Part shown: positions 14,368-48,106 of the stretch, piece after piece
Layout: every line of letters starts with the position of its first letter
Position numbering within the stretch: the stretch's first letter is position 1
NCBI RefSeq assembly: GCF_053078305.1
Contig: NZ_CP166879.1
Reading direction: 5' to 3' (one strand)
Length of the DNA: 64,000 nucleotides
The notes under the pieces: generated by a model
Databases searched by the model: none
Seen by the model: only the letters and a program-made list of their open reading frames with translations
Told to the model about the DNA's origin: nothing
Translations under genes and position numbers: made by a program

Positions 14368-14721
14368 TAGCGTCAAAAAAGCCCCGGCAAGTTTTATTGT
14401 CGGGGCTATGATAGTAACTGCGGTAGTACATTTATCCCGGAAATAACCGGAGCGATTATCAGGGTTTAACAATATTAAATACCCGTAGCGCATTACTAGC
14501 GGGCCTAAAACAACAATATGGACATCTTAACGATACTCTGCGCCTGCGTGTGCGGAACAGAAACCCTTACCCGATATACTTGTTATGCCAGAGGTAGCAA
14601 TTGCGTTAGCGGCGTACTGTTGCTGTAAAGTATAACGCCTATATTTTACAGTTCAGTCCTCTTTTGCTTATTACAACCTTAAGTATATCAAGCATATAAA
14701 GATAATAAGAGACTGAACAAT

Positions 14722-42437: not shown

Positions 42438-45400
42438 TCAGAAGGTCACATTCAGCGTGGCCTGACCGTTATAGCCTTCAGCGCTGCTGCCGCTGACGCT
42501 GTGGACATAACCTGCCTGAACGCCCAGGGTGATGTTTTCCCGGACACGGGCTTCCAGTCCGGCCTGCAGGTCCAGTGACGTACCATTCTGTGACGGTGAG
42601 AACGTCATGTTACTGCCGGCTGCGGCTGTACCCATGCTCATGTCCCCCCGGGAGCTGAAGGTGCGGATAACAGAAGGCTGTACCCACCAGTTCACCGGCA
42701 GTTCACGCACACTGTGTTTGGCACTGCCGCGCAGGGTGTCACGGGATGAGGTGCCTTTACCAAAGTTCATATCGTTGTGGCTGCCCAGACGGAAGCCGGC
42801 ACGCACATGTTGTGCACTGCCATGCCCGAACTTCACATAACCGGCGTTGTCCTGACCGTCATCCAGGGAGAGTCCCTGCCAGGTGTACTGCAGTTGCGGC
42901 TCCAGCATCAGATTGTCAGTGATACTGAAGGGCAGACCGGTTTCCAGTGAACCCAGCCAGCCCCGGCCCCGGACGCGGAAGTCGTTATTGTCCGATGAGG
43001 CTTTCATGCTGTGGCGGGTTCCCTGGGCCACAATGTCAGCCCACAGGCCGGAGGCGTTGTGTATCAGATTCAGGTATCCGCCCAGGCTGCCGGCATCATC
43101 CCGGACCGTGCCGGCACGGGAGCCGTCATCATCCTTAACATCAACGGAAGAATGGCCTGCAGCACCATACACCCCTGTCGTCAGAGACATACCGGCAACC
43201 TCTGTTCTCATCAGGTCACCCTCCAGACGGACGAAGCCATAGCTGCCGCTGCTTTCCGGCGTGGCCCCACGGACAATACCGCCGTTGTTATCGTGACCGA
43301 GATGGCCGCCCTGAATGCTGAGACGGACGCTGTTATTTTCACCGTTTACACCGGTCTGATGGCTGCGGGAGCCTGCCAGAATCCGGTCATAGTCCATTGC
43401 CTGTGTCAGCATGGAGGCATACAGGGGGACTTCTGCACGATAAGCATTTTCACTGCGCAGATACCAGCTCTCATCACTGTCCCGGTTGAGGGAGTAGTTA
43501 AAGGCCCCGGCCTGCAGCCTGTTCCCCTGGACAAAGGCCCCTTCCTCCGTGGTGGCACCGTTAATGGCTTCCACCACCTGAATACCCTTACCGCTGGTCG
43601 CCAGCCCCGACGCACTGTTGCCGGCGTTCACCATGTTCAGGATGGTTTTTCCGGTTGCCCTGCCGCCGTCAATGACCAGTCTGTCAGCATTGTTCTGTGC
43701 CATATCCGGGCGTACACGCAGGCTGATGGTGCCATTCTGCCCGTTCAGGTTTTTCACTTTCAGGGTTGCCGGTACGAACTTCCCTGTGCGGGTGGAGGTG
43801 AAATGAATCTGTCCGGCATGGCTGAGGTCATCCACCACCGACTGCACCGTGGCGTTATCAGGGATATTCCAGGTGGCACCGGAGGCGAGAGTGACATTCG
43901 TGGGGTCAATGGCACCGTTCAGCACAGTGCTGCCGGTCAGCTTCAGGGCTGTACCGCGCTGAGCAATGACATCCGTGGTGACGGTACTGTCGTTCAGCGT
44001 CAGCGTGCCTTCATTCAGGTTGACGGCTTTCTGGGTGAGTGTGGTGTTGCTGACAGTGAGTGTGCCACTTCCTGATTTTTCCACGCTGCCGTTACCGGTG
44101 AGAGAGCCTCCCTGCAGGAGTGCATCGCCTTCACGGATGGTCAGGGTATCGTTGTTCACCGTCTTCCCGGAAAGGGTAAGTATGGCGCCGTTATTCAGCG
44201 TGGTGGTGCCCGCCAGTGTGCCGCCCCTGGCGGTGAACAGTCCGCCATTTACCGTGGTATCCGTGGCCGTATCACCGGCGTTCAGCGTGAATGAACTGCC
44301 TTTTTCCAGCATCAGGGCATCCGCCTGACCGCCTCCGATACTGAATGCCTTTCCGTCGCTCCGTGTACCACTGACAGCGGCACCGGAATCGGCCAGCAGT
44401 ACACCGCCATTTCCCATGGATACGGTGGTGGCGGTACCACCGTTGCGGACATCCAGCGTTCCGCCATCATCCACACGGGTATTAGTGGCTGTGTGTCCGC
44501 TCAGCACATCCAGACGTCCGCCATTTTCCAGTACGACATTATCAGCTTTACCCTCCACAACAGAGAATGCTCCCAGGCGGTTTGTACCGGTAACGGTTGC
44601 AGCCGTACTGGTAACCAGTGCACCGCCCGTGTTCTGGGTGACATCAGACGCTTTACCGCCGGCATTCACCTGCAGCTTTCCTTTCTGGTTGATGGTGGTA
44701 TGCGCGGCAGTTCCTCCTTCCTTAATCACCTGCCAGCCATCACGGTTTATCAGCGTCTCTGTTGCCGTGCCACCGTTGTGTACATACTGGTTACCCCCCT
44801 CCAGCCGGGTGTTATGTGCCTCTCCGTGTACCGTCTGGTCACCACCGGCGTAAATGAGGGTGTCCCGTGCCATCCCCGAAGACCAGATAACCTGCCGGCC
44901 ATTTTTGTTGATGGTGGTGGATTCAGCCGTCCCTCCGACCATCTGACCGCTGGACACATTTTCAGACTCCGGACCACCTTCTGCACCGGTGTTGACGATG
45001 GTTCCGGTTGCCAGTCCGCCATGTTTTATGGTCTGGTAACCATCCAGGTTAATAATTGTACCGGCAGCTTTCCCTCCCCCGTGTACCCACTGCTCACCTC
45101 TGTTATCCAGCGTGGTGTTCACCGCCAGTCCGTTAAGGCTCTGCCCTCCGCCATCACGAATAACCGTATCACTGGCAGTTCCTCCTGCCTGCACAATCTG
45201 ACGACCATTTGCGGTGACAGTGGTGTTTCTGCCTGTGCCACCCGCGTTTATCCATTGCCCGCCGGTGTTTTCGTCACTGTCCGGCCCCAGCTCAAGCCCG
45301 GTACTGACAGTCACGCCATCAGCTGTTCCGGATACAAACTGGTTGTCATGGTTTACCAGTGTTCCGCCATTCACTGTTTCACCCGGGTGCACAACGATGT

Positions 45401-45560
45401 CAGCAGCCAGCACCGGGAGTGACGTGACCGCGGCAAGAGACAGTGCAACCGCCACACCGCCACGTTTACCCCGTGCGCGGGCCAGTTCGGAGGCAACCAC
45501 GAAAGCGCCCGTAATGTGATTCCATACCAGCCTGTAGCAGGTATTCAGATGTCGTTTCAT
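42438..45560 (-). CDS. flu: antigen 43 self-associating autotransporter adhesin
   Basis: MKRHLNTCYRLVWNHITGAFVVASELARARG extended signal peptide; repetitive beta-helix passenger; C-terminal beta-barrel ending in F. Confidence 0.9.
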   Translation of the reverse strand: MKRHLNTCYRLVWNHITGAFVVASELARARGKRGGVAVALSLAAVTSLPVLAADIVVHPGETVNGGTLVNHDNQFVSGTADGVTVSTGLELGPDSDENTGGQWINAGGTGRNTTVTANGRQIVQAGGTASDTVIRDGGGQSLNGLAVNTTLDNRGEQWVHGGGKAAGTIINLDGYQTIKHGGLATGTIVNTGAEGGPESENVSSGQMVGGTAESTTINKNGRQVIWSSGMARDTLIYAGGDQTVHGEAHNTRLEGGNQYVHNGGTATETLINRDGWQVIKEGGTAAHTTINQKGKLQVNAGGKASDVTQNTGGALVTSTAATVTGTNRLGAFSVVEGKADNVVLENGGRLDVLSGHTATNTRVDDGGTLDVRNGGTATTVSMGNGGVLLADSGAAVSGTRSDGKAFSIGGGQADALMLEKGSSFTLNAGDTATDTTVNGGLFTARGGTLAGTTTLNNGAILTLSGKTVNNDTLTIREGDALLQGGSLTGNGSVEKSGSGTLTVSNTTLTQKAVNLNEGTLTLNDSTVTTDVIAQRGTALKLTGSTVLNGAIDPTNVTLASGATWNIPDNATVQSVVDDLSHAGQIHFTSTRTGKFVPATLKVKNLNGQNGTISLRVRPDMAQNNADRLVIDGGRATGKTILNMVNAGNSASGLATSGKGIQVVEAINGATTEEGAFVQGNRLQAGAFNYSLNRDSDESWYLRSENAYRAEVPLYASMLTQAMDYDRILAGSRSHQTGVNGENNSVRLSIQGGHLGHDNNGGIVRGATPESSGSYGFVRLEGDLMRTEVAGMSLTTGVYGAAGHSSVDVKDDDGSRAGTVRDDAGSLGGYLNLIHNASGLWADIVAQGTRHSMKASSDNNDFRVRGRGWLGSLETGLPFSITDNLMLEPQLQYTWQGLSLDDGQDNAGYVKFGHGSAQHVRAGFRLGSHNDMNFGKGTSSRDTLRGSAKHSVRELPVNWWVQPSVIRTFSSRGDMSMGTAAAGSNMTFSPSQNGTSLDLQAGLEARVRENITLGVQAGYVHSVSGSSAEGYNGQATLNVTF

Positions 45561-45589
45561 CAGCATTTCCTTAATCAGAGTGAGAGTGA

Positions 45590-45625
45590 ATAAAAAAGCC
45601 GGTATCCACAGATGTGGATACCGGC
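45590..45625 (-). terminator. terminator-like hairpin plus T-tract in the flu leader, about 30 nt upstream of the start codon
   Basis: 13-bp inverted repeat gccggtatccaca / tgtggataccggc followed on the minus strand by a 7-T run. Confidence 0.5.
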
Positions 45626-45739
45626 AGGTAAAGGGTTACAGTGCCAGAGGTCCGGCTGACGGAAGTTTCTGACGTGTGGCTCTGTTGTTCCCTGAATGTC
45701 TTTCTGTACGTATCTGTGCATGTTACTGACAAAGGTTAT

Positions 45740-45800
45740 TATTAGCTTATCGATCGATATAAACGATCGATAAAATAGGTATCGATCGTTTTATTCTATT
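45740..45800 (-). promoter_or_regulatory. flu regulatory region with three clustered GATC sites (Dam/OxyR phase-variation switch)
   Basis: GATC at 45752-45755, 45765-45768 and 45784-45787, about 190-230 bp upstream of the flu start. Confidence 0.7.
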
Positions 45801-45892
45801 GTTTGGCTATTGCACGGACAAGAGAGACAGTAACGAAAACAGCGCTTTTGTGAGCAGACTCAGAGTCAGGGAGGGCATCAGTCACGACAGGT

Positions 45893-46804
45893 TCAGAAGA
45901 AAATCCAGTTCCATACCGCACGGGCAACAGAGACCACCGTGTTACGAACAGCGCGCAGGGCCGTACGGACAACAGAGGCAACACAGACGCTCTCCGCTGT
46001 GTCAAATATCCGGTCCACCGCACCGGTAAACTGTTCACGGGCCTGAGACCGGACAGATTCCGTGCGCAGCTCGTCCTGCAGTCGGGTCATCAGGGGACTG
46101 GCGGCATGGTCGGGAAGCGCTGTCATGAGCGCACTGACCAGCGTATCCAGTTCCCAGCCGGTGCGGGCCGATACGGCCACAACCGGATGTACGGGCCGGA
46201 ACAGACGGAATACCGCCTCCGTTTTTTCGCGAATATTCTGTGCCTGTGCAGGAGAAGGCTGAATACCGGCCATATCCCATTCATGGCAGGGCTCCGTTTT
46301 GTCGGCCTGCGTCACCACAAACAGCACCTGCTGATGTCCCCGGTGCAGGATGTGTCGCCAGAAATACTCATCCACAGACAGGGCCCGGTCATCGGCTTTA
46401 ATCAGCCACAGCACCAGGTCAAGTTCAGGCAGAATGTCACGGTACAGGGCCTCATACTCTGCATCCCTGTCCCGGCTCTCGCCCACCCCGGGCAGGTCAG
46501 TGATAACCATGCTGTGACCGTGGCCACTCAGACGGAAGCGCCGTACTTCCCGGGTGCCGGCGTGAACATCACTGACCGGGGTGACCTCCCCCTGAAACAG
46601 TGCATTACAGAGTGAGGATTTACCGGCCCCGCTTTTACCCATAATGCCAATCACGGGTTCGTGACGGGTGAGTTTGCGCAGATGTTCCAGGATGTGACGG
46701 GAAAGTGAGTAAGGCAGGGAGGAGAGCGGTTTTTCAATTGCCTCAATGGCATCAGACGGATTCATACATGTATTCCCGGTGAAAAAAGACAAAACCCCGC
46801 GCAC
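45893..46804 (-). CDS. YeeP/YfjP-family GTPase
   Basis: P-loop GKSGAGKSS and DxxG motifs; start may be the internal Met at 46765. Confidence 0.75.
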   Translation of the reverse strand: MRGVLSFFTGNTCMNPSDAIEAIEKPLSSLPYSLSRHILEHLRKLTRHEPVIGIMGKSGAGKSSLCNALFQGEVTPVSDVHAGTREVRRFRLSGHGHSMVITDLPGVGESRDRDAEYEALYRDILPELDLVLWLIKADDRALSVDEYFWRHILHRGHQQVLFVVTQADKTEPCHEWDMAGIQPSPAQAQNIREKTEAVFRLFRPVHPVVAVSARTGWELDTLVSALMTALPDHAASPLMTRLQDELRTESVRSQAREQFTGAVDRIFDTAESVCVASVVRTALRAVRNTVVSVARAVWNWIFF

Positions 46805-48106
46805 CGGAAAGGTGGCGGGGGATCCACGGAGATAATATCTGTCTGAAATTGTTTTGAATCGATGGGATTGTTGCGTATTAACATGAAGGAGATCAGGACT
46901 TATCCGTTACTGGGTGATCTCCTTCCATGAAAATACGCAGTTATTGTTAAACAGCAGGCTGATTTCTCCGTAAAGGGGAAAATATTTATCGGCTGCATGA
47001 TTATCAGGTGTGTCTGTGTTTACTGCTGTGAGTATTTTTCAGTGTATTGTGGGGGAGATGTCAGTGGGAGATATTAAATTTACGTTTATAATTATCTTAC
47101 TTCTTCTGTGTGTTTTTTATAAGAGTGCACACGTAATGATATCTGTTGATACCATGTGGTTAAGTGTTTCCCTTCCGGGTCATGCGTACTTGCAAAATGG
47201 CATCTGAATCGATCACGGTTTGGCCAAACCGTGATCGAATAGAGAGGAATACGCACGTAATGATTAAATGCTTTTGTTACACCATTCTTCCGGCATGAAT
47301 ATTTATCCAGTTCCCTTTTTTATTTGTGTAGTGATACTGTCGGAATAGCGTTCAGTAATGTGAAGCGTCCTGTTAAAAATCTTTAATAAATGTGTCACCC
47401 TGGTCAGGAAATATCTGCTGAGATATTATTAGTTGGTGGTGTTTTTACTGAGTAATAGCTGGCTTTTAATTCCTGAACTGAAATACTGTCGCTCGTCAGG
47501 GTTTAATTAAAACTGGATGATGATGTGAAAATGAAGGCTGGTTTTTGTGTTTGTCGAGGAAGTGTTGTTTTTATCCATTCTCATCATTGGCTGGCTGCGA
47601 TTATACAGAAGTATTTGAAGAAAAAATGGTGCATTTTATCTGTGCCGGCAGGGAGGGGGATTTTCCTGATATGTCAGTATTAAATGGTTTTTGTTATTTA
47701 TAAAAATGTCATCCTGTCCATAGAATATTGTACTGAGTACTCAGCATTCAGCGCAGGAACTGTCATCTTCTTTATTTTATTCTTCTTCAGGAGGGCAGTT
47801 TTCTGAAAGCGTTACTCCGGGGAAACTGTTTATGTTTATTCCCGGCAGGAAACCCGTACCTGCAATACCCTGGATGATGCTTTTTGCTGGTACGTTGTTG
47901 TGTGAAAATTAATCAACATGTGTGCTCCGGAGAGCGCCCGTAGACGCACAGATTCATTCTGACATTCTTTAGCGACAAAATATCGATTGGTTATTATTTA
48001 ACCTGAAAATCGACAGAAATTTTTATCCTGTATTGATTCTGATGCTATTTTTGCTATTAGTAGCAATAGTTGCGGTACTTTATGTTCTGTGTGTTGTAAG
48101 GTCATT

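Follow-up and report, generated by a model that had tools for sequence, protein, structure and literature searches.

The hairpin at 45598..45625 on the minus strand of the window (the whole 64,000-nucleotide stretch of DNA analysed), together with the U-tract that follows it, is very probably a strong intrinsic (Rho-independent) terminator within the agn43/flu leader, which would release the small RNA IsrC from most transcripts and let a read-through fraction continue as flu mRNA. The element is the already described terminator that ends IsrC, known from the Rfam family RF00124, the curated K-12 gene b4435, and Wallecha et al. 2014. The present analysis established how the hairpin is built and where it lies, that it is homologous to IsrC and conserved, and that its wobble pairing is strand-specific; the control of flu by termination and antitermination at this hairpin is taken from the literature, as represented in papers that cite the latter study.

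Structure of the hairpin and organization of the flu leader

The features of the region, all on the minus strand, are listed in the order of transcription.

45893..46804, minus strand: YeeP-like GTPase gene upstream of flu (open reading frame and GTPase family matches)
45793..45821, minus strand: predicted sigma-70-type promoter of agn43/isrC (-35 TTGTCC at 45821..45816, 17-nt spacer, -10 TAGAAT at 45798..45793)
45750..45789, minus strand: predicted Dam/OxyR phase-variation switch with three GATC sites (45787-84, 45768-65, and 45755-52) right where the transcript begins
45592..45789, minus strand: RNA equivalent to IsrC/IS102, i.e. the agn43 leader from start site to terminator (RF00124 match and alignment of K-12 isrC)
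45598..45625, minus strand: predicted terminator hairpin, a 12-bp stem (GCCGGUAUCCAC / GUGGAUACCGGC) with an AUCU loop (folding, terminator scan, and repeat search)
45589..45597, minus strand: U-tract UUUUUUAUU, beginning at the base next to the stem; the annotated 3' end of IsrC corresponds to its sixth U (45592)
45558..45572, minus strand: Shine-Dalgarno (SD) sequence AAGGA (45572..45568) and likely start codon ATG (45560..45558) of flu
42438..45560, minus strand: flu/agn43 CDS for the Ag43 autotransporter adhesin (NCBIfam NF033177 auto_Ag43, 1856.9 bits; cutoff, 1200)

An inverted-repeat search of the window identified two 13-nt arms that are 100% complementary and separated by 2 nt (45598-45610 and 45613-45625), confirming the perfect 13-bp repeat of the preliminary description. 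The minus strand from 45625 to 45598 reads 5'-GCCGGTATCCACA-TC-TGTGGATACCGGC-3', and the wider context of hairpin and tail on this strand is ...CCCTTTACCT-GCCGGTATCCACATCTGTGGATACCGGC-TTTTTTATTCACTCTCACTCTGATTAAGGAAATGCTGATGAAACGA... As RNA, the repeat folds into 12 bp closed by the 4-nt loop AUCU, with a free energy of -24.1 kcal/mol and 96% of the ensemble (z = -8.72; none of 200 dinucleotide shuffles was equally stable). The 28-mer is present in one copy in the window, where 0.00 copies are expected by chance, and the 64 kb contain just three perfect inverted repeats of 12 nt or longer whose arms lie close together. The terminator scan also flagged the hairpin, 8 of whose 12 pairs are G-C; the stem is G+C-rich and the loop short. 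On the transcribed strand, a U-rich tract lies right 3' of the stem; the tail is TTTTTT-A-TT, with six consecutive T at 45597..45592 and not the seven counted in the preliminary description, which had fairly placed the structure about 30 nt before flu (the T-run ends 31 nt, and the hairpin 37 nt, upstream of 45560). Beyond the other end of the stem, the plus strand reads AGGTAAAGGG and contains no T-run, and therefore the predicted terminator would be unidirectional, operating on the minus strand only. When the whole leader was folded, the terminator stem dominated the ensemble with a pair probability of ~1.0, and blocking its formation costs ~19 kcal/mol in both leader classes described below (flu-type and cah-type). 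The intrinsic termination efficiency of the hairpin is expected to be high.

The promoter at 45793..45821 is the sole minus-strand promoter-like site that the promoter scan detected in the yeeP-flu spacer. Its -10 element and the bases following it are invariant in five of five aligned alleles, and the 5' end of K-12 isrC maps 6 nt downstream of the -10. The three GATC sites are clustered just after TAGAAT and conserved across alleles, which is the arrangement of the agn43 switch sequence. In K-12, this GATC block is known to serve as an OxyR/Dam switch, with OxyR binding being blocked by methylation and the ON/OFF states being heritable (PMC2909390), and the corresponding block (45750..45789) is predicted to act as the ON/OFF switch of the present locus. 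Both the promoter and all three GATC sites lie upstream of the hairpin, in the order that had been expected. Downstream of the hairpin, where merely 31-37 nt are available, no promoter was predicted. With this promoter as the only one in the spacer from which flu could be transcribed, read-through of the hairpin would be obligatory for Ag43 synthesis.

The mechanical ORF call begins flu at the ATG at 45566, in the sequence ATG-CTG-ATG (M-L-M-KRHLNT). The second ATG (45560) lies 7 nt from the AAGGA SD and corresponds to the K-12 start with the canonical MKRHLNT N-terminus, and K-12 carries AAG in place of the first ATG. Because of this SD spacing and the K-12 homology, 45560 is likely to be the real start of flu, and the ATG at 45566, while in frame, probably goes unused. 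The segments TAAGGAAA and GCTGATGAAACGACATCTGAA at the SD and start of flu are invariant across alleles.

Several other features were observed in the surroundings of flu. The sequence GGTCCCGGTCAT-A-ATGACCGGGACC, located ~20 nt past the flu stop codon (42393-42417), forms a perfect inverted repeat of 12 bp and is probably a bidirectional terminator; a near-identical hairpin of K-12, whose loop is one base shorter, coincides with a strong Term-seq 3' end (2074672) in antisense orientation to flu (PMC7815308 supplement). Directly downstream of flu, an 840-aa ORF (39801-42323, minus strand) has no NCBIfam match at E <= 0.001. On the other side, the RefSeq homologues of the 45893..46804 gene are annotated as 'GTPase family protein', and the ORF-poor stretch of ~1.3 kb upstream of this gene contains a perfect 30-bp palindrome (47209-47238, TCGATCACGGTTTGG/CCAAACCGTGATCGA) with GATC at both ends, which could be a protein-binding or methylation-sensitive site.

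Identity with IsrC and conservation among alleles

RF00124 (IS102/IsrC sRNA) matches 45789..45585 on the minus strand at 252.9 bits (E = 2e-49; gathering score, 46 bits), covering positions 1-206 of the 206-position model without truncation, and the hairpin is the 3'-terminal (terminator) stem of this model. Rfam scans were performed on 44500-47500 and on the whole window; RF00124 was the sole match in the former, and the only other family reaching its gathering score in the latter was RF00117 (C0719 sRNA), which is present in full length at 14422-14643 on the minus strand (299 bits). The match also has the genomic setting of the IsrC family: it is encoded on the same strand as flu, in the interval that separates flu from the yeeP-like GTPase gene, and stops right ahead of the SD of flu. 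In MG1655 (NC_000913.3), the ncRNA gene isrC (b4435, 'small RNA IsrC') is located at 2071317-2071511 between the yeeP pseudogene and flu (start, 2071539), and it ends 27 nt before flu. Aligned to the window, it corresponds to 45787..45592, i.e. from the first GATC to the last T of the T6 run. The suspicion that the hairpin might correspond to a known element was thus correct. No isrC-type RNA is annotated in the PGAP-annotated genomes examined, which probably explains why the element looks unannotated in most records.

The window and the K-12 locus (CP4-44 prophage) share the yeeP-flu position, the start at the first GATC, and the terminator hairpin with its U-run, and the region is ~94% identical between them. 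The differences are allelic only: the loop is AUCU in the window and GUUU in K-12, pair 8 is U-A in the window and U-G in K-12, the distance from the U-run to the SD is 4 nt longer in the window, which also has an additional in-frame ATG just before the flu start, and the RNA bodies differ by a 1-nt indel.

Wallecha and colleagues reportedly observed premature termination in the agn43 leader in vitro. The study on the control of agn43 by its leader RNA (Wallecha, Oreh, van der Woude & deHaseth 2014, J Bacteriol 196:2728) concerns, as far as it is represented in papers that cite it, the same gene, leader, and locus as those in the window, and these papers place flu under antitermination or attenuation at IsrC. 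Together with the terminator stem of RF00124 and the end of isrC on the T-run, such statements support the earlier proposal of an attenuator in the leader. Other papers refer to 'IsrC sRNA (flu gene attenuation)', with near-equal qRT-PCR ratios for flu (1.74) and isrC (1.68) in an rpoZ mutant (PMC5811629), or to a 'cis-acting sRNA' (PMC10783499), and isrC and flu were down-regulated together in an evolved strain (PMC13168525). Among the 3' ends listed in the Term-seq study of Adams et al. 2021 (PMC7815308), none is found on the plus strand at K-12 isrC; flu may have been phase-OFF in that experiment, or the tables may be incomplete.

In total, 4,092 and 3,951 of 5,426 complete Escherichia coli genomes contain matches to a 401-nt region and to the 46-nt hairpin segment, respectively, the latter in 1-7 copies each. 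A dispersed repeat or REP-like element was considered and rejected, as the hairpin is present in a single copy in the window and its copy number per genome tracks that of Ag43-family genes. When metagenomes were scanned with the flu start as an anchor, 119 instances with at least 400 nt of upstream sequence (98 distinct) were obtained, and the hairpin was found in all 119. The tail is T6ATT in 107 of these alleles and T6 or T5 in 117, with T7 occurring in one. The loop is AUCU, AUUU, GUUU, or UUUU; pair 8 varies among U-A, U-G, and C-G, and pair 12 changes from C-G to U-G. Variants with mismatches were found in eight contigs (CAGG in six, CCAG in one, and a one-base deletion in one). Covariation in the hairpin was not significant because there is too little variation (98.5% of cells paired, 8 of the 12 pairs invariant, and 197 of 500 shuffles reaching the observed score), and the sharp conservation of the hairpin could partly reflect recombination boundaries instead of selection.

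The leaders fall into two classes, a flu/K-12-type of 222-230 nt, to which the window belongs, and a cah-type of 254-261 nt. The latter precedes members of the Ag43-Cah family, e.g. the calcium-binding autotransporter Cah of EHEC, and was found in the metagenome allele L007 (7686-7922, minus strand) and ~76 other metagenome contigs. Both classes share the -10/GATC switch, and their hairpin, U-run, and SD are almost identical, whereas the lengths differ (~255 nt in the cah-type and ~229 nt in the flu-type) and the middle 120-150 nt are unrelated. The identities between the window and L007 are as follows.

GATC switch: 75%
mid-leader: 39% (forced alignment)
hairpin and T-run: 95%
first flu codons: 93%

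Through its two conserved ends, the cah-type leader passes the gathering score of RF00124 (46) at 74.6 bits.

Among the metagenome and MAG alleles, one of the three GATC sites is lost in L012, L022, and L006 (e.g. GATC to AATC or GATA), which might change the phase variation of those copies. When representatives of 100,044 species were searched with a 21-nt sequence from the flu start, a single match was obtained, on a probably contaminated MAG contig; this result says nothing about the distribution among species, because diverged homologues escape an exact 21-mer. L006 (JAIJJM010000521.1) is a 2.3-kb contig that contains an E. coli-type flu leader and flu start in a 'Collinsella sp.' MAG, and its placement there is probably due to binning contamination.

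Alternative explanations and the control of read-through

The perfect 13+13-bp palindrome of the window, regarded as DNA, could be taken for an operator of a dimeric regulator rather than for an RNA structure, but this is highly improbable. In the commonest form of the hairpin (~90 of the 119 contigs), the symmetry of the DNA is broken by a T opposite a G and a U-G wobble pair is kept, which pairs in the sense RNA only; in another variant, C-G is restored. As the wobble pair forms solely in the sense transcript, it points to a structure of the RNA made from the flu strand, with selection apparently acting on the sense RNA, and speaks against a DNA operator, which was rejected on account of these commonest alleles. 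In addition, the T-run abuts the stem on one strand only, and the annotated RNA 3' end lies on that T-run. The suggestion that the hairpin mainly insulates flu from read-through out of the YeeP-like GTPase gene, leaving flu dependent on the phase switch alone, is compatible with the data to some extent. From the GTPase stop (45893) to 45626, the terminator scan detected nothing terminator-like on the minus strand, so that transcripts from the GTPase gene would encounter their first strong terminator at the hairpin. An insulator would, however, be expected upstream of the flu promoter, and the hairpin lies downstream of both this promoter and its start site, where it would terminate the transcripts of flu itself equally. 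Moreover, the RNA ending at the hairpin starts at the flu promoter according to the isrC annotation, and in K-12 yeeP is a truncated pseudogene and the hairpin is nonetheless kept. Insulation would thus be a by-product at most, and as the main role it is unlikely. It is similarly improbable that IsrC is primarily a trans-acting sRNA, for which the hairpin would merely be a terminator or stabilizer and read-through into flu incidental. IsrC has an annotated sRNA gene and an Rfam family, its 3' end (a strong stem and a U-run) is typical of stable sRNAs, cyoD has been suggested as a predicted target (PMC13168525), and dCas13a targeting of IsrC altered lycopene yield (PMC10783499). Against this, over-expression of IsrC left biofilm, motility, and fimbrial phenotypes unchanged (PMC4606813), the cah-type leaders carry unrelated sequence in place of the body of the RNA and retain its two ends, which is unexpected if a seed in the body were selected, and the obligatory read-through into flu noted above would not be incidental.

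Switchable attenuation of the classical kind, with a leader peptide, a riboswitch, or an antiterminator hairpin choosing between termination and read-through, appears quite unlikely. In nascent-RNA folds of the window allele, the 5' arm of the terminator pairs with GAUACC at +7 to +12; in those of cah-type leaders, its partner is +46 to +57. The best partner is, however, no better than those in dinucleotide-shuffled leaders (0.03-0.88 of the shuffles equalled or surpassed it) and is not the same in different alleles, and the terminator (-22 to -23 kcal/mol) is ~10 kcal/mol stronger than the best alternative duplex (-10 to -14 kcal/mol). A conserved, mutually exclusive antiterminator of comparable stability was found in neither flu-type nor cah-type leaders. 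A 48-codon ORF beginning with ATG (45721..45575) crosses the hairpin and stops inside the flu SD, as a leader peptide might, but neither its start nor its frame is conserved; the ORF is missing from 10 of 32 flu-type contigs, and K-12 has a frameshifting indel. The Rfam scan gave no match to a riboswitch or to any family other than RF00124 in the leader and hence no candidate aptamer. As for other known elements, no RfaH ops element is present in the window, and the cah-type leader contains a near-miss (GGCGGATG) only. Read-through is apparently not set by an RNA-encoded antiterminator, a leader peptide, or a riboswitch, which leaves constitutive leakiness or a trans-acting factor.

The strong intrinsic terminator with partial read-through, favoured here, has one awkward aspect: a terminator of this strength is difficult to reconcile with high Ag43 levels in ON cells unless something promotes read-through, and no such element was found. 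The unchanged terminator/SD module on two unrelated leader bodies, together with the lack of an RNA antiterminator, suggests that a trans-acting factor recognizing the conserved ends might set read-through. A related idea is that IsrC, released by the terminator in phase-ON cells only, could itself act in trans, making its targets phase-variable together with Ag43. Both ideas are speculative and carry a low probability.

The arrangement resembles that of classical attenuators and riboswitches (e.g. trp, pyrBI, and SAM) and of the sRNAs that arise when transcription ends prematurely within a 5' UTR (Adams et al. 2021, PMC7815308). The shared features are an intrinsic terminator situated downstream of the promoter and ahead of the start codon, and a terminated leader that would accumulate as a small RNA of its own. 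Unlike the classical attenuators and riboswitches, the agn43 leader has no detectable competing antiterminator, leader peptide, or aptamer, and unlike in metabolite-sensing systems, the upstream decision at agn43 is epigenetic (Dam/OxyR).

Significance for Ag43 expression

Ag43, a textbook example of epigenetic phase variation, is a major adhesin of E. coli in self-aggregation and biofilm formation. According to the mechanism proposed here, RNA polymerase in phase-ON cells (GATC methylated, OxyR off) would start at ~45787 and transcribe a leader of ~195 nt. Most polymerases would be expected to stop at 45625..45592, producing the RNA that is annotated in K-12 as IsrC (Rfam IS102), and the fraction reading through would continue for 31 nt to the flu start and give rise to the Ag43 mRNA. 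The hairpin would also halt any read-through from the upstream GTPase gene.

Rfam, the curated K-12 annotation, and the literature already contain this functional element, which was correctly recognized from sequence alone. What may be modestly new is twofold: a near-identical hairpin/SD module occurs on the two unrelated leader bodies of the flu-type and cah-type, and an RNA-encoded antiterminator is not detectable. Both findings sharpen the question of what sets read-through. The terminator in the leader accounts for the annotation of an 'sRNA gene', isrC, immediately before flu, and as an attenuator acting after the epigenetic on/off switch, it would add a second, post-initiation layer to the control of Ag43.
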